Assembly: GCA_027487995.1 (NCBI GenBank)
Contig: JAIYCN010000233.1
Coordinates: 16,168-80,167, forward strand
From: Rubrivivax sp.
Lineage (GTDB): Bacteria > Pseudomonadota > Gammaproteobacteria > Burkholderiales > Burkholderiaceae_C
Direction: 5' to 3'
Length of the DNA: 64,000 nt
The position numbers were made by a program, and so were the translations under genes. Shown here piece after piece: positions 31,595 through 63,468 of this stretch; position 1 is the first letter of the stretch; each line of letters opens with the position of its first letter. Below the pieces are notes generated by a model. It saw only the letters and a list, made by a program, of their open reading frames with translations. It searched no databases and was not told the DNA's origin.

Positions 31595-32311
31595 TCAGGA
31601 GTGAACGCGGTTGGGGCCCACCGTAAGCGTGACTGCTCCAACTCCCTGGACATGGCCTTCCAGCCGGTCACCCGGCACCACCGCCCCCACCCCTTCAGGG
31701 GTGCCGGTGTAGATCAGGTCACCGGGCTGCAAGCGGTAGTACAGCGACAGGTCCGCGATGATCTCCCGGATGTTCCAGATCAGCTTCGACACGTCCGAAC
31801 GCTGGCGCGTCTGGCCGTTGACCTCCAAGGCAATCTCGCCCTTCTCAATCACATGCCCAGGCATGGGCACCACCTCGGAGCACACCGAGCCTTCCTCGAT
31901 GTCCTTGCCCAGATCCCAGGGGCGGCCCTTTTCGCGGGCGATCAACTGCAGGTCGCGCCGCGTCATGTCCAGACCGCAGGCATAGCCGTAGATCAGCTCA
32001 TGGGCCTTGTCGGCGGGCACTTCAAATCCTTCGCGGCCGATCACCAGCACCAGTTCCATCTCGTAGTGGTAGTCCTTGGTTTGCGGCGGGTAGGCCACCG
32101 TGGCACCGCTTTGCACCAGCGTCTGTGGCGACTTGGTGAAGTAGAAGGCGCGCTCGGCGGCCTTGTCCACCGGGCGGCCCATCTCCACCGCATGGGCGTG
32201 GTAGTTGCGGCCCACACAGAAGATGCGGTTGATCGGTAGGCGTTGCGCGCTGCCGCGCACAGGCAGGCTGGCCACGGGCGGCGGGTTCCAGAGGTATTGG
32301 ACGTCGGACAT
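31595..32311 (-). CDS. fumarylacetoacetate hydrolase family protein (fumarylpyruvate/maleylpyruvate hydrolase-like)
   Basis: I take MSDVQYLWNPPP as the start. The FAH motif is FCVGRNYHAHAVEMG...YHYEMELVLVIG. The gene is adjacent to gentisate dioxygenase. Confidence 0.85.
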   Translation of the reverse strand: MSDVQYLWNPPPVASLPVRGSAQRLPINRIFCVGRNYHAHAVEMGRPVDKAAERAFYFTKSPQTLVQSGATVAYPPQTKDYHYEMELVLVIGREGFEVPADKAHELIYGYACGLDMTRRDLQLIAREKGRPWDLGKDIEEGSVCSEVVPMPGHVIEKGEIALEVNGQTRQRSDVSKLIWNIREIIADLSLYYRLQPGDLIYTGTPEGVGAVVPGDRLEGHVQGVGAVTLTVGPNRVHS

Positions 32312-32364
32312 GAATGGATCCAGTAGAGGTTGAATGAATCGGCTGAAGGCGCCCATTGCAGGCT

Positions 32365-33405
32365 TTACGGACGCACCTCGTACACGCCCAGCTTGCGGTG
32401 GAGGGGCGCTTCGTCGGCAATGAACAAAAAGGCGGGATGGGTGGTCGATCGGTTGCTCAGCGTCACGGCTTCGTAGCCCGGCGCGCAGCAGGTGTCGGCC
32501 TCGGCCAACTGGAAACGCTGGTCGACGATCTGCGCGTCGACCGTGCCTTCAATCAAGTGGAAGACCTGGGCCGGTGAACGGGCCGGCAGCTTCAGCGTCT
32601 GGCCAGGGCGCAGCATCATCGCGCCAAATCCCAGGTTGTTCTGCACATCACGTCCCGTGTCGGGGTTCACGTAGGTCACCTGAACCGCCTGCAGCTCAGG
32701 CTGGCTCTGGGCCAGGGCCACCAGGGCGGCGCGCGTGTCCTTCCAGGGATAGCGCAGCATGGGGTAAGCCTCGCGGCCGCGCTCGAACCAGGGCGTGGGC
32801 ACGATGCCGCCGGCCGCATAGGCTTGGTCGCCGCGCCCGGGCTTGACGTGCTGCCGCTGGCCTTCCTCGGAGTAAGACACCTCGCCGTAGACCATCAGCG
32901 GCAGGTCTAACACGTCGAGCCACACCACCGGCTCATCACCGGTGTGCCCATGCTCGTGCCACTGTCCGGTTGGCGTGAGGATCAGGTCACCGCGCTCCAT
33001 CGGGCACTGCTCGCCATTCACGGTCGTGGTGGCGCCGCGCCCCTCCACGATCATGCGCACGGCATTGGGCGTGTGCCGGTGCGCCGGCGCCCACTCCTTG
33101 GGCAGCAGCAACTGCATGCCCAGGTACAGCGCGGGGCTGACCTTCATGTTGTCCAGGCCGTGGCCGGGGTTGGCCAGCACCAGCACGCGGCGCTCGGCCT
33201 TCTCCATGGGGGTGAGCTCGCCGGCGCGCATCAGCAAGGGGCGCAGGGTGGCATAGGGCCAGTGCACCGGGCGGGTGTTGCGGCTGGGCACCCCGGGCGG
33301 CAGCAGCGCGCGCAGGTTGGGCCAAAGCGGCACCAAGTTCAGCCGCGTGAGTTCATCACGGTAGTCCTGCGGCAGGTCTTCCAGTCGTCCCAATGCGTGC
33401 ATCAT
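32365..33405 (-). CDS. gentisate 1,2-dioxygenase
   Basis: The 346-aa bicupin has WAPAHRHTPNAVRMIVEG...GQWHEHGH. It sits in gentisate-pathway context. Confidence 0.85.
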   Translation of the reverse strand: MMHALGRLEDLPQDYRDELTRLNLVPLWPNLRALLPPGVPSRNTRPVHWPYATLRPLLMRAGELTPMEKAERRVLVLANPGHGLDNMKVSPALYLGMQLLLPKEWAPAHRHTPNAVRMIVEGRGATTTVNGEQCPMERGDLILTPTGQWHEHGHTGDEPVVWLDVLDLPLMVYGEVSYSEEGQRQHVKPGRGDQAYAAGGIVPTPWFERGREAYPMLRYPWKDTRAALVALAQSQPELQAVQVTYVNPDTGRDVQNNLGFGAMMLRPGQTLKLPARSPAQVFHLIEGTVDAQIVDQRFQLAEADTCCAPGYEAVTLSNRSTTHPAFLFIADEAPLHRKLGVYEVRP

Positions 33406-33438
33406 GTGTCCCCTCTTGAATTCAGTTGTGCGACTGGC

Positions 33439-34647
33439 TCAGCCTTGTTGCAGGCAGTTGCCCACATTCCAGCCGTACAGCCATTCAATGGCGTCGTAGA
33501 AGCGTTCCTGGCTGCGGCCTCTCCACAAGGAATTGCGCACCAGTCGTTCCACACCGGCTGCATGGTAGAGCCGACCCATCTCGCGGCCCGACAGCACGAT
33601 GCGCGCCGTGCGGGCCACGCGGTTGTGCTGGTAGAGCTGCAGGGCCTTGTCCCAATCGTGGTCGCAGGCCTTGAGCGCTTCACCCAGCGTCACCGCGTCT
33701 TCCATCGCCATGCAGGCACCCTGGGCCATGTACTGGGTGGTGGGGTGCGCGGCGTCCCCCAGCAGCGTGGTGCGGCCGAACACCCAGTTGCCGATGGGCT
33801 CACGGTCGGCCGTGGCCCAGCGCTTCCAGCTCTTGGGCAGTTCGATCAACTGGCGCGCCTTGGGGCTGATGCCCTGAAAGTAGCTCTCCACCTCTTCCTT
33901 GCTGCCGTCGGTGACGCCCCACTGTTCCTGCTGCCGGCTGTGGAAGGTGACGACCACGTTGTACTGCTCGCCCCCGCGCAACGGGTAGTGCACCAGGTGG
34001 CATTTCGGCCCGGCCCAAAGGCTGGCTGCGTTCCAGCGCAAGTTTTCGGGGAAGTCGGCCTTGTCCACCACCGCGCGGTAAACCACATGGCCGGTGACGC
34101 GCGGCGGGTCATTCACGTACTGCTCCCGCACCACCGACTTGCCGCCATCCGCACCAATCAGCGCCTGCCCTGTCCAGCGCTTGCCGTTCTGGTCGATGGC
34201 AGTCACGGTCTTGTTCGCGTCGTCCTGCTCAATGCGCTGCACGCGGACGTTGGTGTGGAACGTCACGCGGCCACTTTCCTGCGCGCCTTCGAGCAGCGAA
34301 AGGTGCACGTCGGCGCGGTGGATGACGGCATAGGGGTTGCCGAAGCGTTGGCGAAACGCTTCGCCGGTTTCGATGCGGCCCACCAGGGACTCGTCGATGG
34401 CATCGTGCATCACCATGCATTCGGTGTAGACCGCGCGGCTGCGGGCCTTGTCACCCACGCCCAGGGCGTCGAATGCGTGGAAGGCGTTGGGGCCGAGCTG
34501 GATGCCCGCGCCGATCTCGCCGATTTCCGGGGCCTGCTCAAGCACTGTGACGGTGTAGCCCTGGCGAACCAGCGCCAGCGCGGCGGCCAGGCCACCAATG
34601 CCACCGCCGGCCACGATGACGGGCATGTCCTGTTGGGATTTGCTCAT
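33439..34647 (-). CDS. FAD-dependent 3-hydroxybenzoate 6-hydroxylase-like monooxygenase
   Basis: It has the VIVAGGGIGGLAAA dinucleotide fold and the LLGDAAHPTTQYMAQGACMAMEDA motif. I chose the start MSKSQQ, which has GGAG 8-11 nt upstream; the ORF extends to 34659. Confidence 0.8.
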   Translation of the reverse strand: MSKSQQDMPVIVAGGGIGGLAAALALVRQGYTVTVLEQAPEIGEIGAGIQLGPNAFHAFDALGVGDKARSRAVYTECMVMHDAIDESLVGRIETGEAFRQRFGNPYAVIHRADVHLSLLEGAQESGRVTFHTNVRVQRIEQDDANKTVTAIDQNGKRWTGQALIGADGGKSVVREQYVNDPPRVTGHVVYRAVVDKADFPENLRWNAASLWAGPKCHLVHYPLRGGEQYNVVVTFHSRQQEQWGVTDGSKEEVESYFQGISPKARQLIELPKSWKRWATADREPIGNWVFGRTTLLGDAAHPTTQYMAQGACMAMEDAVTLGEALKACDHDWDKALQLYQHNRVARTARIVLSGREMGRLYHAAGVERLVRNSLWRGRSQERFYDAIEWLYGWNVGNCLQQG

Positions 34648-34678
34648 TGCCGTCTCCATTTTGAACTCATATCATCAG

Positions 34679-36840: not shown

Positions 36841-36892
36841 GATTCAAAGGGTCGAGTGCAGGGTGTAAAGGCAGGCTGCGGTCCACAGTTCC

Positions 36893-37273
36893 TCAAAGGC
36901 AGAGTGCCATGCTCTGCGCAAGGAGGGGTGACCCTTCGCGAGGAGGCTCTGGCGCAACCCACATCTGGTAGAGGTTGACCACACCAAGCTTCGCCGAGTC
37001 GCGCTTGGCCCAGCACAAACCGGCCGGCAACTCTCCCACCCGCGCCAGGAGGGGAAGATCAAGGCCAGAGGTGGCCGCAGCAGCGAGACGGGATTGCCAC
37101 ACTTCCGGCGGGCGCGCCGCCTCCAGTGCGTGTGCGCCTCCGAAGGCGTCAGGAGAGTCTAGAAGTGAAGACAGGCGCAGATCGCGATAAGGCTCCCACA
37201 CCGTTAGAAAAAACAAGTCAAGCAGGCACGGCATGGACCCGCTCCCAACGTGGCTGCCCCTGGCATTCGACAT
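36893..37273 (-). pseudogene. GNAT acetyltransferase, truncated
   Basis: The N-terminal GNAT-like sequence (...LRLSSLLDSPDAFGG...VVNLYQMWVAPE) stops prematurely soon after the point where the R-x-x-G-x-G/A CoA motif is expected. It overlaps the next fragment. Confidence 0.45.
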
Positions 37274-37553
37274 GACGACACTCTATGGGTTCGAAGCCAA
37301 GGCGATGAAGCAGCTTGACGTTGCCAAAGGACTGCGCAGTGTCACGCACGGTCCAGAAGGTAGTCTCCACAGCTTTCAGACGCGAAACATCAAGTGACTG
37401 AACGCGCTCGGGCGGCGAGAGCTCATGCATATGGCGAAGATGCTCTTCCAGGAGGGCATGCACGGCTTGGCTGCCGATGCCTCGCCGCCAGTATTGGCTG
37501 TTGAGTTCGTATGCGACGTAGGCGCAATGATCTGTAAGGACCGTGGCTTGCAC
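37218..37553 (-). pseudogene. GNAT acetyltransferase fragment (C-terminal half)
   Basis: The sequence is ...AYVAYELNSQYWRRGIGSQAVHALL...GNVKLLHRLGFEP. An in-frame TAA lies directly upstream of the GTG, and the N-terminal third is missing. Confidence 0.45.
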
Positions 37554-37611
37554 TTATCCTGCGCCCCGCAGGCAAGGTGGCCAGCCGTTGACGCTCAGGT
37601 TGAACGACCAG

Positions 37612-38121
37612 TCAGGCTGCACTCTCGCGGCCCCTGACCAGCGCCCAGCGCTCGTGATCACGCCACTTACCCCCAAGCTTGAGGTACGCCGGCGAGTAGC
37701 CCTCCTTCTTGAAGCCGCAACTTCGAACCAATGCGATGGAACTCACGTTCGAGGGCTGGATGTTGGCTTCAAGGCGGTGCAGTCCAAGTTCGCGGAAGGC
37801 ATGACGCGTCACAAGGGACAGGCCCTTCTTCATGAAGCCACGGCCTTCGTGACCCTTGAAAACGAAGTAGCCAAGATAGCCACTCTTGAAGACCCCATAG
37901 ATCACGTTGGTGAGATTGATGGCGCCAACCAACTCACCAGTGTCAGTGAGCGAAACGACGAACCCAAAGTGATGCCGGGTGTCGAAGCGCGCGATGTAGC
38001 GGTCGAAGGCGGCGGCGTCGCAAGGCGCTGTGGCCCACGGACGATGAAGTTGTCGGCTTCGGCGAGCGGCAGCAGTGAATGCTGGGAGGTCAGTGGATTG
38101 AACGGCGCGAACGGCAATCAT
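37612..38121 (-). CDS. GNAT family N-acetyltransferase (RimJ/RimL-like)
   Basis: I take MIAVRAVQSTD as the start, just outside the attC. The sequence contains ...GYLGYFVFKGHEGRGFMKKGL...ANIQPSNVSSIALVRSCGFKKEG. Confidence 0.8.
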   Translation of the reverse strand: MIAVRAVQSTDLPAFTAAARRSRQLHRPWATAPCDAAAFDRYIARFDTRHHFGFVVSLTDTGELVGAINLTNVIYGVFKSGYLGYFVFKGHEGRGFMKKGLSLVTRHAFRELGLHRLEANIQPSNVSSIALVRSCGFKKEGYSPAYLKLGGKWRDHERWALVRGRESAA

Positions 38122-38133
38122 GCGAGGTGAGCA

Positions 38134-38259
38134 GCCTAACGTTTGAGCTGAGGGTTCGTGCCTTCGTGGCGCCTGACCCACGAGGCGAATGATGACAGCA
38201 AGCGTCTCGCGGGCCAAGTGCCACACCGACGCGCGTCCCCTCGAGCGAAGGTTTAGGTC
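38134..38259 (-). repeat. attC-like recombination site (126 bp)
   Basis: It starts GCCTAACGTTTGAGCTGAGG and ends CCTCGAGCGAAGGTTTAGGTC. The ends are imperfect inverted repeats with RYYYAAC / GTTRRRY-type cores. Confidence 0.65.
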
Positions 38260-38430
38260 TCGCCCTGCGTGGCATCACTTGGCGTGAAGTGGCAGTTGAA
38301 GCAGCGCGGAACTACAGAAGGCTGATGTCTCTTGGAGTCACCGTGCGTGGGACCGTCGACGTACTGATCGCAACTCGGATGACCACCTCACTCGGGTGAG
38401 CGAGTAAAGACGGGGCTCATGGGTCGTTTT

Positions 38431-38961
38431 TCAGATGGGTGCATCAAGCCGGTAGTGCACCACCACCTGACGCTTCCCACTGGTCTCGTTGACCTTCTCG
38501 TGGGATAGCCGTGCACCCAACTTCTCCACTGCCCGACGTGACCGAAGGTTCTCGCTTCCGATGTGGAACCAAACGCTTGAGGCGGTCTGGAACGCATGCT
38601 CAAGCATCAAGTTCTTGAGCTCGGTGTTGGTCGGTCCTCCCCAATGTCGCGTGACCAGAAAGGTGTAACCGATCACGACGCTGCGATCGGCTGGGTTCCA
38701 CTGATAGAACCGCGAGGACCCGATGCAATGGCCGGTCGTGTTTTCCAAGACCATCAGCAGGCCACCCGTCCGGGCGGCGGTGTCCCAGAACTCAGTCTTG
38801 AACACCTCGCGGCGGTACCGGTTCGGTGAGGGATGCTGAGCCCAAACCGCAGGATCTGCCGCCGCCGTGAACACCGCATCAAAATCCTCAATGGTGGCAG
38901 GTCGGACCATGATGGTCGGCCCGCCCAAATTGGGCTGGCTATCGAAAGTGCTGGTTTGCAT
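38431..38961 (-). CDS. GNAT family N-acetyltransferase
   Basis: The 176-aa ORF contains ...IGYTFLVTRHWGGPTNTELKNLMLEHAF...GSENLRSRRAVEKLGA. Confidence 0.8.
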   Translation of the reverse strand: MQTSTFDSQPNLGGPTIMVRPATIEDFDAVFTAAADPAVWAQHPSPNRYRREVFKTEFWDTAARTGGLLMVLENTTGHCIGSSRFYQWNPADRSVVIGYTFLVTRHWGGPTNTELKNLMLEHAFQTASSVWFHIGSENLRSRRAVEKLGARLSHEKVNETSGKRQVVVHYRLDAPI

Positions 38962-38982
38962 GGGAAGCTCAGAGTCGAGATC

Positions 38983-39750
38983 TCACTGCCCCTTGAACAA
39001 ACCCTGAAACGGCCGCGACACCGTGAGTTGATCGGGGCAGCCGCGCAGCTTGAGCACCATGCCCCCGGCATCGTCGCGTATGGCGCTGGCGATCTGGCTG
39101 CTGGCCACGATGACCGAGCGGTGAACCTGCTGGAACTGCCCCGGGTTCAGCTGCACCAGCAAATCCTTGAGCGGCGTGCGCAGCAACGCCTCGCGCTGCT
39201 CGCCGTCTTCGCGGTAAACCACGCGCGTGTAGCGCGCATCCGATTCGAAATACACCACATCGGCCACCCGGATGATCCGGATCTCCTTGCCGATGCTGGC
39301 CTGCAGGGTCTCCGGCTGAGGCGGGCGGGCCGGAACCAGGCGCGACAGGAGAGCCTGCAGGGCTTCGGCCTGCGCGGGCTCCGAGGTGGGCCGTGCCAGG
39401 CGCTGCTTCAGGCGCTCCACCGTCTGCGCCAAGCGCTGTGGCTCCACCGGTTTGACGAGGTAGTCCACCGCGCCAGTCTCAAAGGCCTGCAGCGCATGGT
39501 CGCCATAGGCGGTCACGAACACCACCGGGCAGCGCCCCTCGATCTTCTGCGCCACCTCCAGACCTGTCATGCCAGGCATGCGAATGTCCAGGAAGCAGGC
39601 ATCGGGCTGGTGCTGCAGCCACTGGTCCCAGGCATCGGCCCCGTGCACGGCTTGGGCCACGATATCGGCCTCGGGCCACGCTGCGTACAGCGCATCGGCC
39701 AACTGCTCGCGCATGGCGGCTTCATCATCGGCAATCAGGATGCGGGGCAT
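38983..39750 (-). CDS. LytR/AlgR family response regulator (receiver + LytTR DNA-binding domain)
   Basis: I take MPRILIADDE as the start, in an ATGA overlap with the kinase stop. The acceptor context is DACFLDIRMPGMTG. The LytTR C-terminus is ...IRVADVVYFESDARYTRVVY...HRSVIV. Confidence 0.9.
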   Translation of the reverse strand: MPRILIADDEAAMREQLADALYAAWPEADIVAQAVHGADAWDQWLQHQPDACFLDIRMPGMTGLEVAQKIEGRCPVVFVTAYGDHALQAFETGAVDYLVKPVEPQRLAQTVERLKQRLARPTSEPAQAEALQALLSRLVPARPPQPETLQASIGKEIRIIRVADVVYFESDARYTRVVYREDGEQREALLRTPLKDLLVQLNPGQFQQVHRSVIVASSQIASAIRDDAGGMVLKLRGCPDQLTVSRPFQGLFKGQ

Positions 39751-40946
39751 CAGGCCTCCTCGAATTGCAGTTCGGCCCGCGTACCGCCCGTGCTCAGCGC
39801 TTGAAGGGTGAACCGGGCCTTCAAGCCGTAATGCTGCTGCAGGCGCTGGCGCAGGTTCGACAAGCCCACCTGATCGCATGCCTCGGGCGACAAACCCAAA
39901 CCATCGTCTTCCACGCGAAGCCACCAGCCGCCCGTGGCCAAGTCACCGCGCCCACTGCTCAGGTTGAGCCTGCCGCCCTCGATCTTGGGCTCCAGGCCAT
40001 GCTCGATGGCATTCTCGACCAAGGTCAGCAGCAGACCGGGCGGAACCTTCTGCGCCGCGCACTGGGGATCCAGTTCAATCTCGAAACTCAACCGATCACC
40101 CATGCGGGTCTGCATGATGGCCAGGTAGTGCGCCGCCGCCCGCACCTCGTCGCCCAGCGGCACCAACGGTCGACCCAGCATCTCGGTGCTGCCACGCAGA
40201 AATCCCGTGAGTTCGCGCAACAGCGGCCCGGCCCGCGGGTCGGCCCTGTCGACCCAATGCTGCAGCGTGGCCAGTGTGTTGAATACGAAGTGCGGGTGGA
40301 TCTGCGCCTGCAGTAGGCGCAGTTCCGTCTCGGCGGCCACCGCGCGTACCGCATCGCGTTCGGCCAGCAGTTGCAGTCGCTGCAGACGCTGGGCACGAGC
40401 GGTCTTTCCTGCCCACGACACCATCGCCACCACCACGATGAGCCCCACCAACAACAGAAGCGCGGGCAAGGCCCCCCTCTCGGCGGCGTGCTGCAGGCGC
40501 GCCCAATCAACATCACCGTGGCGGACCCATTGGCCGAACACCAAGCCCACGACTGCACCGGCCACGCCCACCAGCATGCCCCAGCCAAAGCCGGCAACGA
40601 GTTTGGATGTACCTTTGCGCTTGGGTGAAAACCAAGCCCCGAAAATGACCCAGGTCAAGGCCAACCACAGCACGCTGGCCAGGCCAATGGCCTTCAGCCA
40701 GGTGACATCGAGCCCGGCCCGAACACCCAATACCGCGCCCAAGCCACCTAGCGCCCAGCCGAACCATGCAAACAACCCGCGTCGGGTGTAGAGAAACTGG
40801 TCGACCTCCTCGATCTCTCGGGCCAGTTCGGGATCGTCCCGCCCGATACGCTCGTAGTGGGGCTGGGCCCAGCGGTAGTAGGCACGCTGCAGGCGGTTGC
40901 CCGTCGCCAGGGAGTTGCCGGTAGCCAATGGGTTGGTGCTCATCAT
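39750..40946 (-). CDS. LytS/YehU-family sensor histidine kinase
   Basis: The 398-aa ORF has TM segments, then QAQIHPHFVFNTL (H-box of the His_kinase family) and the LVENAIEHG N-box. Confidence 0.9.
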   Translation of the reverse strand: MMSTNPLATGNSLATGNRLQRAYYRWAQPHYERIGRDDPELAREIEEVDQFLYTRRGLFAWFGWALGGLGAVLGVRAGLDVTWLKAIGLASVLWLALTWVIFGAWFSPKRKGTSKLVAGFGWGMLVGVAGAVVGLVFGQWVRHGDVDWARLQHAAERGALPALLLLVGLIVVVAMVSWAGKTARAQRLQRLQLLAERDAVRAVAAETELRLLQAQIHPHFVFNTLATLQHWVDRADPRAGPLLRELTGFLRGSTEMLGRPLVPLGDEVRAAAHYLAIMQTRMGDRLSFEIELDPQCAAQKVPPGLLLTLVENAIEHGLEPKIEGGRLNLSSGRGDLATGGWWLRVEDDGLGLSPEACDQVGLSNLRQRLQQHYGLKARFTLQALSTGGTRAELQFEEA

Positions 40947-41180
40947 GGCTTAGATTGTGCAAAGCCTGCAGCGACCGGTGAAGCGAAAAGCGATCAGGCA
41001 TGCCGCGAGATTCATGAACCATAGCTCTGGACGTATGAGTCGCAGATGTCGATTTGCAGCGGTCTTCTTTCGCGGAGGGTCAGGGGGCCGGGCGCGCGGC
41101 GTCGGTGGTTGCCGAAACGCTTGGGATGACCAATGCCAGGTTGAAGATGAAGCGCGACATAACCTCTTGACGGTTCACAG

Positions 41181-41657
41181 CTAGCCCGCCGGTACAGGTA
41201 GAACACGCACAGTCGCTTCTATGATTGCTCGCTCCTCTGCGTCCTCAAGCGCGGCCGTTAGTCGGGTAGCTTCGTTGTAGTGCCGAGCGTGATCCGCGGC
41301 GTTGCCGCTTGCTGATGCAACATTCGCTGCAACGGCATGCGCCAGGGCGCGCTCCCATGGCTTGGCGGATTCCCCAAGAAACACTGGCAAACACCTTTCC
41401 AGGTAGGGAGCGGCAGCGCTCGGTTGCTTGAGCAAGGCATACGTATGTGCGAGTAGTTGCGCCGCATGTATCTGCGTGTTTGCATCGCCCACGATGCCCC
41501 AGAAGTACATTGCTCCGTGTGCCGCATTGAGCATCTCTTCGTCCTCAGCTGCAGTACGAGCATGCTGCTCTGAAAGTGACCAAGCGCGATTGTTCGCTTG
41601 ACTCGCGAGACGACGCTGCCAACGAACTACTTCTTCGGGGGACGGCTTTTCAGTCAC
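41181..41657 (-). CDS. hypothetical protein (helical; integron-cassette-like position)
   Basis: The 158-aa ORF starts 28 nt from the attC at 41685. I recognise no motif. It is less GC-rich than the adjacent two-component genes. Confidence 0.6.
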   Translation of the reverse strand: MTEKPSPEEVVRWQRRLASQANNRAWSLSEQHARTAAEDEEMLNAAHGAMYFWGIVGDANTQIHAAQLLAHTYALLKQPSAAAPYLERCLPVFLGESAKPWERALAHAVAANVASASGNAADHARHYNEATRLTAALEDAEERAIIEATVRVLPVPAG

Positions 41658-41684
41658 GACGACCTCCTCAGTGTTGCTTGCGCT

Positions 41685-41810
41685 GCCTAACGTTTGAGCT
41701 AACCGGTACGGCGCGGCATGGCACCCTTTCCGCGAGGCGGATGATGTGAAGAAGTGCCTCGCAGCCAGGGTGCCGTGCCGTGGCGTGTCCGATTGAGCGA
41801 AGAGTTAGCC
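41685..41810 (-). repeat. attC-like recombination site (126 bp)
   Basis: It starts GCCTAACGTTTGAGCTAACCGG and ends CCGATTGAGCGAAGAGTTAGCC. It lies 15 nt 3' of the higA-like stop. Confidence 0.7.
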
Positions 41811-41825
41811 GTCGCTGCCTGTGCG

Positions 41826-42164
41826 CTATTTGCCGGCAACCGCCAGCAGCGCCTTCGGGTTGGTACGAGCAATGGTCAGCAACGTGCGCGCAGCACCACT
41901 TGGCTGCTTACGACCTTGTTCCCAGCCTTGCAAGGTGCGCACCGACACGCCCAGCAGCGCCGCGAACTGGCTTTGGGACAAGCCAGTCTTCTCCCGCGCC
42001 TCGGTGGCGGGACTGTAGGCGACACGGACCTTGCCAGACTTCATTTCGCGAATGGACTGCAGGAGTTCGGCGCCAAGATCGCGGCCGGCCTCGTACTTGG
42101 CAAGTTCCTTGGCGGACAGAGGACTAGTCTTCGAGGGCACGACGGATCTCCTTGAGTACAGCAC
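41826..42164 (-). CDS. higA: HigA-2-like antitoxin (XRE-type HTH)
   Basis: The sequence is ...REKTGLSQSQFAALLGVSVRTLQGWEQGRKQPSGAARTLL. It lies downstream of and overlaps the HigB-2-like toxin. The exact start is uncertain. Confidence 0.8.
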   Translation of the reverse strand: MLYSRRSVVPSKTSPLSAKELAKYEAGRDLGAELLQSIREMKSGKVRVAYSPATEAREKTGLSQSQFAALLGVSVRTLQGWEQGRKQPSGAARTLLTIARTNPKALLAVAGK

Positions 42165-42438
42165 CGGTGAGGTTGTCGGTCTTGGACTTCGCGTACAGAG
42201 TCAGAAGCACCAGTTCTTCAGCCTCGTTCCGAATGAAGTAGATGACCCTGACTCCGCCTGACTTACCAGTGCCCTGACGCTTCCAGCGGACCTTGCGAAT
42301 GCCACCAGACTCCGGCACGACATCGCCGGCTTCCGGGTTTGCTGAGAGGAACGACGCGAACTCGCCGAGTTCATCCTCTGTCCAGTACGCGGGCCACTGC
42401 TTCTGAAAGAGCAGGGTCTCGACTACGGTGAACATCAC
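42124..42438 (-). CDS. higB: HigB-2-like (RelE/ParE superfamily) toxin
   Basis: The 104-aa ORF matches, from memory, the Vibrio cholerae superintegron HigB-2 pattern: ...NPEAGDVVPESGGIRKVRWKRQGTGKSGGVRVIYFIRNEAEELVLLTLYAKSKTDNL. Confidence 0.8.
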   Translation of the reverse strand: MMFTVVETLLFQKQWPAYWTEDELGEFASFLSANPEAGDVVPESGGIRKVRWKRQGTGKSGGVRVIYFIRNEAEELVLLTLYAKSKTDNLTGAVLKEIRRALED

Positions 42439-42489
42439 AGAACTATACGCCTAAGGCGCACAGCTGTCGAGCCCCCGGGTGCTTGCGAC

Positions 42490-42598
42490 GGCCAACGTTC
42501 GAGTTAAGCCGCAGTGGCTGAGCAGCTAGCATGCTTAAAGGCACTGCTTTTCACTCAATTGACTCGCTCAAGTTCAGCGAGAACAGCCTCGGTTAGTT
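42490..42598 (-). repeat. attC-like recombination site (about 109 bp, more diverged)
   Basis: It starts GGCCAACGTTCGAGTTAAGCC and ends ...GCTCAAGTTCAGCGAGAACAGCCTCGGTTAGTT. It lies 52 nt upstream of the higB-like start. Confidence 0.55.
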
Positions 42599-42749
42599 CA
42601 AAGCGTAAGTCGACGCAATCGAATCCACTTCGATAACCATTTGGCCAACTTGCCATGACTTCGAATCCGCTCTTCACATAGAAGCCAGCGATGTGCGGTG
42701 TTGTGAACCGTTGCGAAAGCCCCGGATGGTGATCCGGCCGCGGTGGCTA
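42555..42749 (-). pseudogene. GNAT acetyltransferase C-terminal remnant
   Basis: My reverse-frame translation is ...TPHIAGFYVKSGFEVMASWPNGYRSGFDCVDLRFELTEAVLAELERVN*. Its stop lies inside the attC. A TAG is upstream, and the rest is replaced by the plus-strand S41 ORF. Confidence 0.4.
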
Positions 42750-43543
42750 CGCCACGGGCCAAGCCGCCGCAGGCGTCCGTGCGATGGCTCTCGAAGACCA
42801 CAGTGCTGTTGAACTTTCCCACCTTCCATCCGTCTGCCGAAGCACAGGTGCGCGAACTCTTCAAGAACAACCGCAACCGCCTGGCGCAGACACCCCACTG
42901 GATCATCGATGTTCGCCGCAATGATGGCGGGAGCGACAGCACCTACCATCCCATCGTTCAAGCAGTCGTCGGCAATTCGCTTCTTCACCACATGGTGGAA
43001 TTCCTGGCCACGCCGGCCAATATGGAGTCCACCTTGCGGGTTTGCGAGATGGAGGCGCCCGGCGACGCGGACTGCGTCAAGTGGGCCCAATCGATGGTCG
43101 AGTTGATGCGCGCTGCCCCACCAGGGTCTTACGTGCTACCTCCGGGCTTGAAGAGCGCGGTGATCCGCGTTGAACCGGAACCGCCCGCGCGCAAGCGGCC
43201 TCAGCGCGTGGCCGTCTTGATCGACAAGGACTGTGGCAGTTCCTGCGAACAGTTTGCCCTGACCATGCGGCAAAGCTGGAACGTCAAGCTGATGGGAAGG
43301 CGCACCTACGGCGCGCTCGACTATTCCAACCTGCGCCCGCACCCCTTGCCGTCCGGACAGCGGGTGCTGCAGTACGCCACCTCCCGCTCGCTTCGCCTGC
43401 CTCACCTTCCCGTGGATGCCGTGGGTGTGCTGCCCGATGTGCTTCTGACGCCGCCGGTCGATGAGGCCGGGCGCGAGAGGGAAGTTGCATTCGTCCGCGC
43501 GCTGCTCGAGGGTCGGCCGATGGACCCGCCGCCGGGGCGGTGA
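42743..43543 (+). CDS. S41-family peptidase catalytic-domain protein (possibly 5'-truncated), opposite in orientation to the cassettes
   Basis: The 266-aa ORF has WIIDVRRNDGGSDS and VAVLIDKDCGSSCEQFAL motifs, like tail-specific protease cores. It lacks the N-terminal and PDZ parts and is GC-rich. Confidence 0.5.
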   Translation: MATPRAKPPQASVRWLSKTTVLLNFPTFHPSAEAQVRELFKNNRNRLAQTPHWIIDVRRNDGGSDSTYHPIVQAVVGNSLLHHMVEFLATPANMESTLRVCEMEAPGDADCVKWAQSMVELMRAAPPGSYVLPPGLKSAVIRVEPEPPARKRPQRVAVLIDKDCGSSCEQFALTMRQSWNVKLMGRRTYGALDYSNLRPHPLPSGQRVLQYATSRSLRLPHLPVDAVGVLPDVLLTPPVDEAGREREVAFVRALLEGRPMDPPPGR

Positions 43544-43676
43544 ACGCGGCCTGCATGTGAACCGTCAAACCACGACAGCGCCCATCCGCGCCCGTACATC
43601 ACCAAACGGCGACGAATTCAGCGAGGCGATCGAAAGCCGTCGGTGAAAGGTAACCGCAGGTGAGCGGATGGTGCGC

Positions 43677-43773
43677 GCCAGCGTTCGTACCCCAATGTTT
43701 GCGCCATGCTGCCCGCGGAGGCAGGTTTTGTAAGCCCGCGCCGTAGCGGGTCAGCTTGAGCGAGGGGTTAGGC
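43677..43773 (-). repeat. attC-like recombination site (about 97 bp; left end degenerate)
   Basis: The right end, TCAGCTTGAGCGAGGGGTTAGGC, is identical over 23 nt to 44461-44483. The left end, GCCAGCGTTCGTACC, is a decayed GCCTAACGTTCGAGCT. The brnA TAA lies in the core. Confidence 0.6.
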
Positions 43774-44001
43774 TGTACTTTTGGCCGGAGCGGACTTCCA
43801 TGCCAAGTTCAGCTTCTTTTGAGTTGCCGCGCAGTCTTTGAGGTACAGATTGATGAGGCTTTGGTAAGGAATGCCTGTTTCCTCTGCCATGCCCTTGAAG
43901 TATGAGATCGAGCCTTCATCGAGTCTGATCGTCACAGACTTCTTGAGCTGCGAGGCGTATGGGTTCTTCCGAGCGTTGCTGAAGTCGTATTGCTTGCGCA
44001 T
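43768..44001 (-). CDS. brnA: BrnA-family antitoxin
   Basis: I take MRKQYDFSNARKNPYA as the start. The sequence continues ...VTIRLDEGSISYFKGMAEETGIPYQSLINLYL, typical of BrnA. It begins 4 nt after the brnT stop. Confidence 0.8.
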   Translation of the reverse strand: MRKQYDFSNARKNPYASQLKKSVTIRLDEGSISYFKGMAEETGIPYQSLINLYLKDCAATQKKLNLAWKSAPAKSTA

Positions 44002-44005
44002 GTGC

Positions 44006-44296
44006 TCACCTTTGGTAGCTTGATCGTTCTTGGGCGTCCGCCTTGCGCGCGGAGATGATGCGGATGACTCTGCCCTCGCTTCTGTAGCAGTGAACGACAA
44101 CAAGAAGGCGGAGGCTTTGGCTCAGGCCGAGAAGGACGAACCGATCTTCTTCCTCGGAGTGGTCAGGGTCGTCGATCAACAACGCGTTCTCATCCGAGAA
44201 GACAGATTGCGCATCCTCGAAGGAGACGCTGTGCTTTCGAAGATTCAGCGCGCCCTTCTTGGGATCCCACTCGAAGCGTAGACTCGACATACGCAC
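44006..44296 (-). CDS. brnT: BrnT-family (DUF497) toxin
   Basis: The 96-aa ORF contains FEWDPKKGALNLRKHSVSFEDAQSVF...RFVLLG...RIISARKA. Confidence 0.8.
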   Translation of the reverse strand: MRMSSLRFEWDPKKGALNLRKHSVSFEDAQSVFSDENALLIDDPDHSEEEDRFVLLGLSQSLRLLVVVHCYRSEGRVIRIISARKADAQERSSYQR

Positions 44297-44354
44297 ATTG
44301 TACGCATATCGTACATACGCGGCAATGGGTTGATGCCCGGTTGTGCTTCGTGCA

Positions 44355-44483
44355 GCCTAACGTTCGAGCTAAGCTGGGACCGAAGGTACTTGGTGCTTGC
44401 CCGCGGAAGGCAAGATGCCACAGGCGACTGGAGCGGGCAAGCGCCGAGTGCCGTAGGGCCTCAGCTTGAGCGAGGGGTTAGGC
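44355..44483 (-). repeat. attC-like recombination site (129 bp; best-preserved copy)
   Basis: GCCTAACGTTCGAGCTAAGCTGGG at one end pairs with CCTCAGCTTGAGCGAGGGGTTAGGC at the other. The arms are reverse complements with a few bulges. The TAA stop of the GNAT ORF lies inside the GTTAGGC core. Confidence 0.75.
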
Positions 44484-45002
44484 CGCAGTTTCACTCGGTT
44501 GAAGCCGCAGGGCCATGTGTACCTTGGCCTTGAACCCGCTTGATGTTCGAATGGCCATGGGCTCGATGCCGAAGGTCTCGAAGCCGACGCTTCGATACAA
44601 GTTTATGGCTGGCTCATTGCCTTCTGTGACCGTAAGCGTGAGCACGAGCAAATCTTCCCGGGCTCGTGCTTCGCTCACGATGGCATCTAGAAGCGCCCGA
44701 CCGATACCTTTGCCTCGGACACTCGGCGATGTGTACATGCCAATGACCAAACCCTTGTGCCTTATCTTGGGCTTTGTTGAGCACTCAAGCGCGACAGTCC
44801 CGACCAGGGCTTGACCGTCAAAGGCGCCCAGCGCCGCACTTAGACCAGTGGGATCTGCGATGCGCTTGACCCAGAAGGCTTCAGGTTCTGCTGCCCGCTC
44901 GTTGGCAGTTGAAGTAAACGCGTCAGTAGCAAACTCATAGGCCTGCAGCATGAGCTCGCGGTACTGCTTGGCGTCCGAGGGCTGAAGGCGGGCAACGTGC
45001 AT
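44478..45002 (-). CDS. GNAT family N-acetyltransferase (first cassette next to attI)
   Basis: The 174-aa ORF has the CoA-binding motif YTSPSVRGKGIGRALL and ...EGNEPAINLYRSVGFE. Confidence 0.85.
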   Translation of the reverse strand: MHVARLQPSDAKQYRELMLQAYEFATDAFTSTANERAAEPEAFWVKRIADPTGLSAALGAFDGQALVGTVALECSTKPKIRHKGLVIGMYTSPSVRGKGIGRALLDAIVSEARAREDLLVLTLTVTEGNEPAINLYRSVGFETFGIEPMAIRTSSGFKAKVHMALRLQPSETAA

Positions 45003-45012
45003 CGTTTTTGCG

Positions 45013-45080
45013 GCCTAACTAGTTCTAGAGCCTGTATTTGCAGCACTAACGTCACAAAAGCATCAACAGCGGCCGCACAA
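45013..45080 (-). other. attI-like site / cassette junction
   Basis: The minus strand reads ...GACGTTAGTGCTGCAAATACAGGCTCTAGAACTAGTTAGGCC. This gives a GTTAGGC core 10 nt before the first cassette ATG and a second GTTAG repeat 31 nt upstream. The site lies between the array and the divergent intI stub. Confidence 0.45.
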
Positions 45081-45187
45081 CAGGAGTTGCCGCAATTCTG
45101 CTGGATGACCGGGGGCAGTCAACAGTGCCATCCCCAAGATGGGCGCGCCCGTCGGAGGTGTTTCACTGCTGAGTCAGCGGCCTTATC

Positions 45188-45465
45188 GTGCCTCGAATGG
45201 AGGAATTCACTTCACCACCGGCCGGTTTACTCCAGCGCATGAGGGAGAGCATTCGTTACCACCACTACAGCCTTCGTACCGAGTCGGCCTACATCCACTG
45301 GGCTCGACAGTACCTTCGAATTCACAGCATGCGGCACCCACGCACCATGGGTGCGCCCGAGGTGCAGGCCTTCCTGAAGTGGTTGTCCACCGAACGCCGT
45401 GTTCAGCCTCCACTCACCGGCAAGCCCTTGAGGCCCTACTCTTCCTCTACCGCCACGGAAGATAC
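45188..45465 (+). pseudogene. intI: integron integrase, N-terminal ~93 codons only, frameshifted
   Basis: LLQRMRESIRYHHYSLRTESAYIHWARQYLRIHSMRHPRTMGAPEVQAFLKWLSTERRV parallels the IntI1 N-terminus ([34 protein letters not shown]...EVEAFLSWLANERKV). The next block, SASTHRQALEALLFLYRH, is in another frame, consistent with a 1-nt loss near 45402. Similarity ends at 45465. No catalytic domain is present. Confidence 0.8.
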
Positions 45466-45515
45466 TGGTAGGCCGTGCTGGACTTGAACCAGCGACCAAA
45501 GGATTATGAGTCCTT
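45466..45515 (-). pseudogene. tRNA 3' fragment (CAT anticodon arm, T arm, acceptor 3' strand, CCA); no 5' half
   Basis: The minus strand reads AAGGA-CTCATAA-TCCTT-TGGTC-GCTGG-TTCAAGT-CCAGC-ACGGCCT-A-CCA. The complementary acceptor 5' strand (AGGCCGT) and the D arm are absent from the adjacent sequence. Confidence 0.6.
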
Positions 45516-45994
45516 TGGTTTGAGCCCTATCCTCTCCGCAGCGCAGCACTGGCGAGGGGTTGCCCCTGCCGGTGTGCGCGGGATTTCGTGCACATGCGCC
45601 TAACCCGGCGCCTCGCGTGCACATGATGCCTCGAGAGGATTTCGATGGCAACACTTCAACGAAATCACCACAAAATCTTGTCAGGTCCCAGAGCCGATGA
45701 GCGCCGTTTAATCGACGGCATGAACGTGTCGGACGCGCAGCGTCATCGGCAGCTTTCATGACCACATCAAACAGAGCACATAGGCGAATCGGCACGGTCT
45801 CGGTAGGCTTAACTCGTATTGAGGAGCCTAAATTTTTTGCGGCCGATGCGGTTTCTCCAACGTGGGGATCTTGTGCCGACCCACTGATCACATCCAGGTC
45901 TTTACTTCGATGTGCGTCCGTTTCCCGATGAATCCTTTCTTCCTTTATGCAGATTTCGAACGGAGTCGGAGGGATTTGGTGCCGCGAGCTCAGA

Positions 45995-46717
45995 TCAAGA
46001 CGTTCCCAAGTGCCCAGATCGACCGACGGTCAATCTAATATTTGCCACGCCTTCGACTCGACCCTCAACATGATCTCCCGGGAGCAGTGGTCCTACTCCC
46101 TCGGGAGTCCCCGTGTAAATGATGTCGCCAGGCTGCAGGTGGTAATAAAGGGACAGATCAGAAATGATCTCTCGGATGTTCCAAATGAGATTGCTCACAT
46201 CGGACTTCTGCTTGACCTCGCCGTTAACCTCTAGCTCGATCTCGCCTTGCTCGATGACGACGCCGGGCATGGGCACTACTTCTGAGCAGACAGAGCCGTC
46301 CTCAATATCTTTGCCAAGGTCCCAGGGTCGCCCCTTGTCGCGTGCGATCAGTTGCAGGTCGCGCCGCGTCATGTCCAGACCACAGGCATAGCCAAAGATC
46401 AGCTCATGCGCTCGCTCGGTGGGCACCCGAAACCCCGACTTGCCGATGACCAACACGAGTTCCATTTCATAGTGGTAGTTGTTGGTTTCAGGCGGGTAGG
46501 CCACCGTGGCGCCACTCGGCACCAGGGTCTGAGGAGACTTGGTGAAGTAGAAGGCGCGCTCAGTTGCCTTATCGACGGGGCGGCCCATCTCCACCGCGTG
46601 GGCATGGTAGTTACGGCCCACGCAGAAGATGCGATTGACCGGTAGATGCTCATGGTGGCCGCGCACCGGAAGGCTGGCGACGGGGGGCGGGTTCCAAAGG
46701 TAGGTGGTTGCGGTCAT
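45995..46717 (-). CDS. fumarylacetoacetate hydrolase family protein (paralogue of 31595-32311)
   Basis: The 240-aa ORF is roughly 80% identical by eye to the first copy. It has more A/T at third codon positions. Confidence 0.85.
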   Translation of the reverse strand: MTATTYLWNPPPVASLPVRGHHEHLPVNRIFCVGRNYHAHAVEMGRPVDKATERAFYFTKSPQTLVPSGATVAYPPETNNYHYEMELVLVIGKSGFRVPTERAHELIFGYACGLDMTRRDLQLIARDKGRPWDLGKDIEDGSVCSEVVPMPGVVIEQGEIELEVNGEVKQKSDVSNLIWNIREIISDLSLYYHLQPGDIIYTGTPEGVGPLLPGDHVEGRVEGVANIRLTVGRSGHLGTS

Positions 46718-46726
46718 GGGCGGCTG

Positions 46727-47833
46727 TCAGCTGCGGACTTCATAGACACCGAGCTTTCGGTGCAGTGGCGACTCGTCGGCGACGAAGAGGAACGCGGGTT
46801 CCGTGGTCGAGCGATTGGTCAGCGTCACGGCCTCATAGCCGGGCGTGCAGCAGGTGTCGGCTTCTGCCAGGGTGAATGTGTGCTCGGTTACCGCCAAATC
46901 TACGCGCCCTTCGATAACGTGGAATACCTGCGAAGGTGAGCGTGCGGGCAGCCGAAGCTGCTGAGCAGGGCGCAGCATCATCGCGTAGTAGCCCAGGTTG
47001 TTTTGTATGTGGTACCCGGTATCGGGGTTCACATAGGTGACCTGCACACAAGTCAGGCTTGGCTGGGTTTGCGCAAGCGCCTCCAGCGCGGCTCGCGCCT
47101 CCCGCCACGGATAGCGCAGCATCGGGTACTCAGCGCGGCCTCGCTCGAAGTAGGACGTGGGCACCAACCCGCCGTGCAGGTACACCTCGTCTCCGCGGCC
47201 GGTTTGCACAGTCTGGCGCTGACCTTCCACAGCGTACGAAACCTCCGAGTAGTACATCAGGGGCAAATCCAGCACATCAAGCCATACAACTGGGTCACTG
47301 CCACTGTGCTCGTGCTCGTGCCATTGCCCAGTGGGCGTCAGGATCAGGTCACCGCGCTCCATGGGGCACTTTTCGCCATTGACCGTGGTGGTAGCGCCGT
47401 GCCCCTCGACGATCATGCGCACCGCATTGGGCGTATGGCGGTGGGCGGGTGCCCACTCACCCGGCAGCAACAATTGCATGCCCAAGTACATGGCCGGACT
47501 GGCCTTCATGTTTTCAAGCCCATGGCCCGGATTGGCCAGCACCAATACACGGCGCTCGGCCTTGTGCATGGGAGTGAGCTCACCCGCCTGCATCAATAGG
47601 GGCTTGAGGGTGGTGTAGGGCCAGTGAGTGGGCCGGGTATTCCGGCTGGGGACCTGGGGCGGTAGCACCGAACGCAGGTTGGGCCACAGGGGCACCAGGT
47701 TCAGCCGGGTCAGTTGGTCGCGGTAGTCCTGCGGGAGGTCCTCAAGTCGTCCAAGTTCATGCACGTGTTGCCCTCCCCTCGCTGACCATACTGCCCAGTG
47801 AAACCGGTCTTCAAATCGTCCGAGTTCATGCAT
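46727..47833 (-). CDS. gentisate 1,2-dioxygenase (second copy)
   Basis: This bicupin is collinear with 32365-33405. The homologous start is the GTG at 47764 (VHELGRLEDLPQDYRD). The ATG at 47833 adds 23 codons created by a tandem duplication. Confidence 0.85.
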   Translation of the reverse strand: MHELGRFEDRFHWAVWSARGGQHVHELGRLEDLPQDYRDQLTRLNLVPLWPNLRSVLPPQVPSRNTRPTHWPYTTLKPLLMQAGELTPMHKAERRVLVLANPGHGLENMKASPAMYLGMQLLLPGEWAPAHRHTPNAVRMIVEGHGATTTVNGEKCPMERGDLILTPTGQWHEHEHSGSDPVVWLDVLDLPLMYYSEVSYAVEGQRQTVQTGRGDEVYLHGGLVPTSYFERGRAEYPMLRYPWREARAALEALAQTQPSLTCVQVTYVNPDTGYHIQNNLGYYAMMLRPAQQLRLPARSPSQVFHVIEGRVDLAVTEHTFTLAEADTCCTPGYEAVTLTNRSTTEPAFLFVADESPLHRKLGVYEVRS

Positions 47834-48129
47834 GTGTCGCCCGCCCCATCCTGACTACAGGATCCAGTGAAACCAGTTGATGCGAGAGCCCGGTGCAGGG
47901 CCCGCCGGCGATTTCGCCATGCACCGCTGCCAATTCGCTGGCAGATCAATTCGACGGCATGGTCGACACCCACACGGCGCAATGCCGCCAAGGATGGAAT
48001 GCCCACCTCACTCAGGCGCTCGACGACCTCAGGGCCGAGTAAAGGGGTGACATGGATCACCCTTCGGTCTTCCTCTGGCCATTCAGCCCCTGACTCGGAT
48101 CTCATCTGAGTCGATTTCATACTCGGCAC
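47710..48129 (-). CDS. TfoX C-terminal-like helix-hairpin-helix domain protein (3' end uncertain)
   Basis: The sequence is ...VTPLLGPEVVERLSEVGIPSLAALRRVGVDHAVELICQRIG. The ORF tail runs out of frame through the duplicated dioxygenase leader, so the real stop and functionality are unclear. Confidence 0.4.
   Translation of the reverse strand: MPSMKSTQMRSESGAEWPEEDRRVIHVTPLLGPEVVERLSEVGIPSLAALRRVGVDHAVELICQRIGSGAWRNRRRALHRALASTGFTGSCSQDGAGDTCMNSDDLKTGFTGQYGQRGEGNTCMNLDDLRTSRRTTATN
47741..47877 (-). repeat. tandem duplication (68 + 69 nt) of the dioxygenase start codon and leader
   Basis: Unit 1 (47741-47808) and unit 2 (47809-47877) align at about 80% identity. Each contains CGTCC[A/G]AGTTCATGCA[C/T]GTG and CCAGTGAAACC[G/A]GT. 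Confidence 0.8.
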
Positions 48130-48139
48130 TCATGCGGTC

Positions 48140-48181
48140 CCGAGCGGAATACCGTGATCTCGCGATCGGTATCCCGCTCGG
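48140..48181 (-). terminator. long hairpin downstream of the TonB-dependent receptor gene (no U-tract)
   Basis: CCGAGCGGAATACCG-N12-CGGTATCCCGCTCGG has 15-nt arms with one mismatch. It lies 22 nt after the receptor stop. Confidence 0.4.
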
Positions 48182-48202
48182 CCACGCAGATTCGAACTTA
48201 CG

Positions 48203-62629: not shown

Positions 62630-62675
62630 CCATGCCCCCGAGTCCTCACGCCTTCTCGTCTGAATGGAGTTTTCG

Positions 62676-63434: not shown

Positions 63435-63468
63435 TGGCCTTCCAACTTCATCCAAGGAAGGTCCCGCG

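Follow-up and report, generated by a model that had tools for sequence, protein, structure and literature searches.

IntI, the integrase of integrons, is a tyrosine recombinase whose attC substrate is a hairpin folded from the bottom strand. It integrates circular cassettes at the G/TT of attI and releases them again by recombination between two attC sites, and a promoter near attI drives the first cassettes. The prototype of the toxin–antitoxin pair HigBA-2 is an integron cassette of Vibrio cholerae. Within a 64,000-nucleotide stretch of contig JAIYCN010000233.1 from Rubrivivax sp. (the window; all positions are those of this whole stretch), an earlier note had proposed a decayed sedentary integron at 36893–45515. 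Our analysis supports the reading as a decayed integron. The element is very probably a degenerate chromosomal integron of a freshwater, Burkholderiales-type betaproteobacterium, namely a cluster of attC sites lacking an integrase (CALIN) that retains an N-terminal relic of intI and the attI junction. None of the outcomes that the earlier note had named as fatal to this reading was observed: palindromes that fail to score as attC sites, a distribution like that of repetitive extragenic palindromes (REPs), or a stub without identity to IntI.

A CALIN has been defined as a group of two or more attC sites that share a strand, are separated by less than 4 kb and have no functional intI in their vicinity, and loss of intI is among the proposed origins (Cury et al, 2016; PMC4889954). 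The same study found intI pseudogenes beside 15 of 279 CALINs, using a search by C-terminal profile, and proposed that CALIN attC sites are usable by an integrase in trans (Cury et al, 2016). The window contains such a cluster: the significant sites at 44355, 43690, 41685 and 38134 all lie on the minus strand, and the largest gap is 3.4 kb. As in other CALINs, the cassettes are mostly of unknown or non-resistance function. The difference is that an N-terminal intI relic and an attI junction are visible here, and a C-terminal-profile search would miss that relic. The kind of element is already well known; what is new is this member, with its parent platform still visible.

Two further described systems are close. 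The V. cholerae superintegron and sedentary integrons of the V. cholerae repeat (VCR) type resemble this locus in being chromosomal, in having homogeneous, lineage-specific attC sites and in carrying toxin–antitoxin cassettes, including a HigBA-2 homolog here. They differ in size and preservation, with more than 100 cassettes in the superintegron against approximately six to eight in the window, where the integrase is destroyed, several attC sites are eroded and non-cassette genes interrupt the array. The likeness to class 1 integrons lies in the intI stub (64% identical to IntI1), in an intact IntI from a metagenomic relative (L095, 68% identical to IntI1), in attC boxes and extrahelical bases laid out as in attC aadA1/aadB, and in the occurrence of one attC of the same family in a Tn402-type class 1 integron (aac(6'), blaVIM-2). 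However, the identity is far too low, there is no tni or 3' conserved segment (3'-CS), resistance cassettes are absent and the attC sites are about twice the aadA-type length. With 64% identity over IntI1 residues 14–88, where a class 1 element would have a near-identical IntI1, the locus does not belong to class 1.

Recombination sites and the integrase remnant

The attC sites were scored with a covariance model (R1) built from nine attC sites that were cut from three clinical-plasmid class 1 integrons (aadB, aadA1, catB8, aac(6')-IIa, aadA5, cmlA1, aac(6')-Il, dfrA17 and qnrVC1). This model holds the R-box and L-box pairs only and was run unfiltered on the whole 64-kb window. Three sites, all on the minus strand as are the other sites described here, were significant. 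Site 1 (44355–44483) is an intact site of 129 nt (40.3 bits, E 3.6e-8), site 4 (41685–41810) is likewise intact, with 126 nt (34.2 bits, E 1.5e-6), and site 5 (38134–38259, 126 nt; 27.1 bits, E 1.2e-4, hit 38134–38258) heads the left of the two blocks described below. Next in the ranking came site 3, a remnant at 42490–42552 (13.7 bits, E 0.41), and the decayed site 2 at 43690–43773 (13.6 bits, E 0.44), and the rest was noise. A second model (R2), made from the attC family to which the sites align, detected site 2 with 49.2 bits (E 8.6e-12) and did not detect site 3. Sites 1, 4 and 5 are thus attC sites by R1, and site 2 by R2. A sixth site is represented by its 5' half (GCCTGACTGGTCGTTCAAC, 37599–37617), found as a pattern match with three mismatches; its 3' half is deleted.

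The palindromes at 44355–44483, 41685–41810 and 38134–38259 have a GCCTAAC-like 5' end and a 3' end in ...CTCRAACGTTAGGC. They show the architecture of an attC site, in which 5 nt of spacer separate the L box from an R box of 7 bp. Sites 1, 4 and 5 and their family have, on the bottom strand, an extrahelical G in the L box and an extrahelical T six bases further in, comparable with attC aadA1/aadA7. The R boxes of sites 1 and 4 are GCCTAAC/GTTAGGC or a one-mismatch variant, and the R'' box of site 5 is slightly decayed (ACCTAAA). Boxes, spacer and extrahelical bases are therefore those of a canonical attC site. Single-strand DNA folds of sites 1 and 4 were more stable than those of shuffled sequences (−41.2 kcal/mol, z −6.5, and −35.9 kcal/mol, z −5.7, respectively). 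The 3' motif has four exact copies in the region and none elsewhere in the 64 kb, and the 5' motif has five copies against 0.49 expected in the whole window. The checks that the earlier note had proposed, scoring with an attC model and folding of the bottom strand, thus gave positive results: three of its palindromes were significant with an unrelated class 1 model and a fourth with the family model (49 bits), sites 1 and 4 exceeded the shuffles, and the R and L boxes with the extrahelical T and G were present.

The boxes also overlap the cassette genes, as had been pointed out for two of them. The TAA within the 5' box (R'') is the stop codon of the open reading frames (ORFs) 44478–45002 and 43768–44001, and the TGA of GCCTGAC is that of ORF 37612–38121.

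Two of the five palindromes originally listed required correction. Site 2 ends at 43690, not at 43677. Alignment with an intact ortholog in a metagenomic contig (L153) shows that 43 nt have been deleted from its interior and that the L'/R' boxes, GCAGCTTAGCTCGAACGTTAGGC in L153, read GCAGCATGGCGCAAACATTGGGG in the window, with a decayed ATTGGGG box that ends at 43690. Of site 3, the L'/R' half alone is recognisable (GGCTTAACTCGAACGTTGGCC, an exact match to the 3' motif), and the 5' boundary at 42598 is unsupported. The description of GCCTAAC-like and GTTAGGC-like ends accordingly holds for sites 1, 4 and 5, which also keep the coordinates first given; the 3' box of site 2 is mutated and site 3 is without its 5' half. 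A possible attC 5' half after the orphan ORF of the array (GGCTAGC..CGTCAAG, ~41160–41186) was seen by eye only, has no model support and is not claimed.

When the two ends shared by sites 1 and 4 were combined into one exact search pattern, it matched at least 120 metagenome contigs, of which 80 were analysed. These 80 contain 140 attC sites with 137 distinct sequences, never on both strands of one contig, spaced 415–2866 bp apart (median 710 bp) and with lengths that peak at 129, 132 and 112 nt. When sites 1, 4 and 5 were aligned with 27 diverse family members, compensatory changes were seen in 29 of the 48 predicted pairs, whereas the R box, the L box and both extrahelical bases varied little or not at all. 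The R1 scores of the family members range from 20 to 47 bits, and the sites of the window fall within this range. The intact IntI encoded on one contig (L095) shares 68% identity with IntI1 and 64% with the stub of the window, and its gene is divergent from two family attC sites. Sites 1, 2, 4 and 5 of the window align to this one metagenome-abundant family of mostly 129–132 nt, and the array accordingly has the homogeneous attC sites of a sedentary chromosomal integron.

The integrase remnant lies at 45188–45457 on the plus strand. ORF calling gives a plus-strand ORF at 45188–45487 that starts like an integron integrase; similarity to IntI ends at ~45457, after ~90 N-terminal codons. One nucleotide is missing from a run of T near 45405, which causes a frameshift, seen as two frames in tblastn. 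The frameshift-corrected stub is 64% identical to IntI1 residues 14–88. The NCBIfam models that it matches are integron integrases throughout, namely NF011946 (E 1.5e-21; positions 16–75 of 337) and TIGR02249 (E 2.2e-15), and its Pfam match is Phage_int_SAM_4. The intI stub postulated at 45188 is therefore borne out, including the significant similarity to IntI on which the proposal had been made to depend (NF011946, E 1.5e-21; integron-integrase models only in NCBIfam). The PF00589 region is lacking, and tblastn with full-length IntI1 found no C-terminal or catalytic part of intI anywhere in the 64-kb window. About 90 of some 320–340 codons, or about 27% of the gene, are kept. The gene is dead (truncated, frameshifted and devoid of a catalytic domain), and the locus does not have the full integron integrase of a complete integron.

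When the 90-aa stub was used to search for homologs, the only matches were 20 short N-terminal fragments, none of them a full-length integrase. Frameshifts also split several other metagenomic intI genes of this relationship (L086–L093) into N-terminal and C-terminal ORFs, which suggests that inactivation of the integrase is common in this group. Two other frameshifted intI genes among the stub homologs (P0005 and P0002) have no attC alongside by the class 1 model.

The predicted attI region spans 45013–45187 on the minus strand and comprises a GTTAGGC crossover core (45013–45019) and a promoter-like site. The core is present as first reported, 10 nt ahead of the first cassette ATG (45002), and lies 169 nt from the intI start, on the opposite strand. 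The last 30 nt ahead of it, CTGCA...GAACTAGTTAGGCC, resemble the ...GAACAAGTTAGGCC that adjoins the intact IntI of L095. The intI relic is transcribed divergently from the cassettes, which is the canonical integron arrangement. With a GTTRRRY core beside the start of intI and cassettes divergent from it, the segment has the sequence features of an attI site. A promoter scan identified one tentative, consensus-level sigma-70-like candidate, TTGACT-16-CAGAAT (45122 to 45095), directed into the cassettes. No LexA box was found near the intI start.

Cassettes and the two-block layout

Nearly all real genes between 36.9 and 45.0 kb are small and on the minus strand. Cassette 1 (44478–45002) encodes a GNAT acetyltransferase (Pfam Acetyltransf_1, E 9.9e-16). 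Cassette 2 (43768–44296) carries a BrnT toxin gene (44006–44296; BrnT_toxin, E 2.4e-28) followed by a BrnA antitoxin gene (43768–44001; BrnA_antitoxin, E 5.2e-7). A candidate promoter for brnT, TTGCCG-17-TACAAT (44325 to 44297), lies in a block that L153 largely shares, apart from a single difference in the −35 hexamer; the BrnTA cassette of L153 is 91–94% identical at the protein level and flanked by two intact attC sites. Cassette 3 (42743–43543) is in reverse orientation, on the plus strand, and contains an S41 peptidase-like ORF (Peptidase_S41, E 1.8e-16). Cassette 4 (41826–42438, minus strand) encodes a HigB-2-like toxin (42124–42438; Pfam RelE PF06296) and a HigA-2-like antitoxin (41826–42164; HTH_3); among PDB entries, the two proteins are most similar to HigB-2 (E 7.7e-17) and HigA-2 (E 4.1e-11) of V. 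cholerae. By sequence similarity and gene order, the HigBA-2-like and BrnTA pairs are homologs of the respective prototypes, with adjacent genes and the predicted toxin first.

The last cassette of the right block is an orphan ORF of 158 aa (41181–41657, minus strand) that has no Pfam or NCBIfam match and no recognisable attC after it by R1 or R2. Further left, a minus-strand GNAT cassette ORF (37612–38121; Acetyltransf_3, E 4.9e-22) precedes half-site 6, directly after which come a GNAT fragment without its N-terminus and a second eroded ORF. These fragments (37218–37553 and 36893–37273, together 36893–37553, minus strand) are taken as eroded cassettes. The first has a weak Pfam GNAT match (E 0.0026); the assignment of the second (36893–37273) as a GNAT was a by-eye likeness only, with no hidden Markov model support, and was dropped.

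All the GNATs of the array are generic and score below every curated resistance cut-off, so that they were rejected as resistance genes. A comparison with plasmid aac(6') covered the GNAT of cassette 1 only and showed no relationship. Exact-sequence look-ups gave no match for the TctC, MarR, orphan and response-regulator proteins and, for the GNATs, matches in the same strain only. The GC content of the region is 0.59–0.61 against 0.657 in the left flank and 0.617 in the right flank; the lower GC content reported earlier is thus real, though modest. The cargo of GNATs, HigBA-2-like pair, BrnTA and orphan was also correctly described, with the omission of the S41 peptidase-like gene and of a LytS/LytTR pair at 38983–40946.

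This pair belongs to a minus-strand trio at 38431–40946 consisting of a LytS-type histidine kinase (39750–40946; Pfam His_kinase), a LytTR response regulator (38983–39750; Response_reg/LytTR) and a GNAT (38431–38961; Acetyltransf_3). In two other sequences (L216 and L217) the trio is found with 81–86% nucleotide identity, no attC and different neighbours. Its GC content at third codon positions (GC3) is 0.73–0.84 versus 0.55–0.73 for the array-strand cassette genes. These comparisons identify the trio as a conserved chromosomal module rather than cassettes, and the array is therefore in two blocks. The right block comprises intI', attI, four cassettes and the orphan, and the left block site 5, the GNAT cassette, half-site 6 and the fragments. 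The earlier claim of one element consequently holds for the shared integron architecture, whereas the array itself is split by a conserved non-cassette module.

The module and the orphan cassette (38134–41810) are bracketed by sites 4 and 5 in the same orientation. It is conceivable, although we consider it improbable, that the module is an ordinary chromosomal operon trapped between these sites and that 38134–41684 would be excisable as a 3.55-kb circle with an integrase in trans. If so, the trapped module would be a natural intermediate in the recruitment of chromosomal genes into the cassette pool.

Comparison with a near-identical strain (L219) confirmed that cassette content varies in a shared context, the pattern that the earlier note had proposed to look for in sister genomes. 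L219 is 98.4% identical to the window over 38275–41700. Ahead of the same orphan cassette, it has a GNAT cassette with its TAA stop inside a 64-nt attC (R1 40.9 bits) in place of HigBA-2 and site 4 of the window, and the two sequences merge within the shared ...AGCTCAAACGTTAGGC attC end. At the other end, the homology stops at 38275, 16 nt short of site 5. The 64-nt attC of L219 (within 1–453) is aadA-like, and short and long attC types coexist in the arrays of this lineage.

Boundaries and alternative origins

The presence of accB, accC and tdk (thymidine kinase) within the window, together with the lack of plasmid or transposon genes in the gene tables for 34.5–56.7 kb, places the window on the chromosome. 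The right flank shares its gene order with the closest species-level relatives (L003 and L004, 88–97% identical), but this collinearity ends at 46023. This breakpoint lies inside the last ~10 codons of a fumarylacetoacetate-hydrolase-family gene, whose C-terminus differs between the window and these relatives. Strain-specific DNA therefore extends to 46023, beyond the right edge of 45515 given originally. Only near-identical strains share the element; L003 and L004 carry other DNA at the junction.

Between the end of intI' and the breakpoint we identified a 5'-truncated tRNA-Met fragment (45469–45533, minus strand) that abuts the broken intI end. It runs from the anticodon arm to the CCA; Rfam aligns tRNA model positions 9–63 of 71 to 45477–45533 (34.4 bits), the acceptor/CCA end (45469–45476) was assigned by eye and blastn, and blastn to annotated tRNA-Met genes covers 45460–45517. 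ARAGORN reported no tRNA in the window, and the partial tRNA-Met was seen by Rfam only. It is followed by 490 bp of low-GC filler (45534–46023) with no match in plasmids, phages or Rfam. A permissive Rfam search of 36.4–46.1 kb found nothing relevant besides the tRNA piece and no group II intron. The segment 45469–46023 resembles a scar left either by an integrative element or by an illegitimate joining event. The left boundary lies somewhere within 36.4–36.9 kb; relatives that have the MarR cluster are only 60–81% identical and share nothing with 36.4–46 kb.

Several points weigh against the reading of the locus as a degenerate resident integron. The array, with its approximately six to eight cassettes, is short, and site 3 lacks statistical support (R1 E 0.41; not found by R2). 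The family model was trained with sites 1, 4 and 5 included, so that only the R1 scores are independent for those three. A second, independently made assembly of this strain (99.75% identical) is interrupted inside the tRNA piece, where two of its contigs end and overlap by only 30 nt, and the link of the integron side to the right flank and the hydrolase gene therefore rests on a short repeat; the junction between intI' and the tRNA end lies inside one contig of that assembly and is hence safe. At this junction the two closest relatives have no such array, which does not support a long sedentary residence. The stable inheritance at one locus that characterises a sedentary integron thus appears to be lacking, and of the term "sedentary" as first applied, the chromosomal location stands (accB, accC, tdk) and the long residence is not supported.

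This last observation bears on the possibility that the array was brought in recently by mobile DNA, such as a genomic island, which integrated or recombined beside the gentisate genes, and is not a long-resident sedentary integron. Collinearity with L003 and L004 is lost exactly at 46023, a 3' fragment of tRNA-Met, a typical attachment scar of integrative elements, lies at the inner side of the junction, the GC content is below that of the left flank, and attC sites of the same family occur on Aquabacterium and Polaromonas plasmids. However, no island-type integrase, transposase, tni or conjugation gene was present among the checked ORFs and gene calls of the region, the stub has only 64% identity to IntI1 and so indicates no class 1 platform, and the left boundary was not located; we regard a recent island as unlikely, though worth retaining. 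Somewhat more plausible, if still tentative, is that two separate elements are juxtaposed: an integron remnant with intI', attI and five cassettes (41160–45457), which borders on native chromosomal DNA, and a small, independent cassette cluster (36850–38275) that came to lie beyond the module when a piece of an array was translocated or when an integrase inserted it at a secondary site in the genome. Such an origin would agree with the conservation of the module (38442–40917) without attC in L216 and L217 (81–86%), with its GC3 of 0.73–0.84 above the 0.55–0.73 of the array-strand cassette genes, with the lack of an attC after the orphan ORF, and with the end of the sequence shared with L219 (98.4% identical) at 38275, 16 nt from site 5, beyond which the two differ. 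Yet the two blocks, at a distance of 3.4 kb, agree in orientation and in attC family, so that a single array split by an insertion fits equally. None of the neighbours of the module in L216 is found in the window, which places the module outside its usual neighbourhood here too, and L219 reaches only 63 nt past the breakpoint.

Taken alone, long GC-rich imperfect palindromes 3' of genes could be terminators or REPs, and the locus might then consist of structured intergenic repeats beside a fragment of an unrelated tyrosine recombinase. This explanation is refuted, and we assign it a negligible probability: a model built from class 1 sites only matches the palindromes with E 1e-4 to 4e-8, an intact IntI adjoins family sites in one relative (L095), and the stub matches integron-integrase families only. 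The palindromes are also strand-specific and occur in arrays at cassette spacing. Within the window the sites are confined to this region, and the 80 metagenome contigs show single-strand arrays at such spacing, which rules out the REP-like alternative that the earlier note had considered.

Two further observations concern the flanks. In L003 (RFTU01000098.1), the homolog of window 62331–64000 sits 3.2 kb from the end of the hydrolase gene, on the integron's side, with a sulfatase and an aldehyde dehydrogenase in between. Compared with 46023–49250 and 62331–64000 of the window, this layout points to a rearrangement, to a block that is tandem or circular, or to a metagenome-assembled genome with a chimeric contig. 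Also, paralogous gentisate sets (31595–34659 and 45995–47833; hydrolase and gentisate 1,2-dioxygenase, ~74–80% nucleotide identity) flank the integron region, and the right-hand set has a GC3 below that of the left-hand genes.

Fate of the array and reach of its attC family

Returning to the degenerate chromosomal integron, the following history would account for the locus. The element would formerly have captured and shuffled cassettes through IntI acting at G/TT on folded bottom-strand attC sites. The integrase gene may then have been cut by the junction with the tRNA-Met fragment. The array would also have been rearranged after its formation, such that the kinase/regulator/GNAT module now stands between the right and left blocks. 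After the loss of intI, the array would be frozen in cis and subject to neutral decay; we infer that it is in this state now. What survives is the attI core and three structurally intact attC sites, and what has eroded is one attC site, by deletion and substitution, and two that are half sites. The toxin–antitoxin cassettes probably retard loss of the array and large deletions. As proposed for CALINs, sites 1, 4 and 5 could still be usable by an integron integrase in trans.

The attC family extends beyond the metagenome contigs to plasmids. On the Pseudomonas kurunegalensis plasmid NZ_CP156903 (L214, 5001–5132), a family attC lies behind an aac(6') cassette and next to blaVIM-2. It is 79% identical over 132 nt (35.9 bits), and its host is a Tn402-type class 1 integron of a clinical Pseudomonas plasmid. 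Further family attC sites were found on the plasmids of Aquabacterium olei (pTB101, L215) and Polaromonas CJ2. The clinical example suggests that at least one resistance cassette found in the clinic came from the Burkholderiales attC family. The origin of the class 1 platform is believed to lie in the bacterial class to which this attC family belongs (PMC8352920). No betaproteobacterial attC family was modelled by Ghaly et al (2021), who placed the aadA/aadB/catB-type sites in a "Xanthomonadales-like" clade (PMC8352920).

The locus is an integron relic that both gene-by-gene annotation and searches for the integrase C-terminus would miss. It documents a case in which loss of the integrase leads to a CALIN, with one attC site seen to erode relative to an intact ortholog. 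The attC family, although a side observation, may outweigh the relic itself in importance: because its boxes are near the aadA/aadB type, its linked IntI is 68% identical to IntI1 and one member stands beside blaVIM-2, it is plausible that this family of freshwater and wastewater Burkholderiales is a donor pool for class 1 cassettes.

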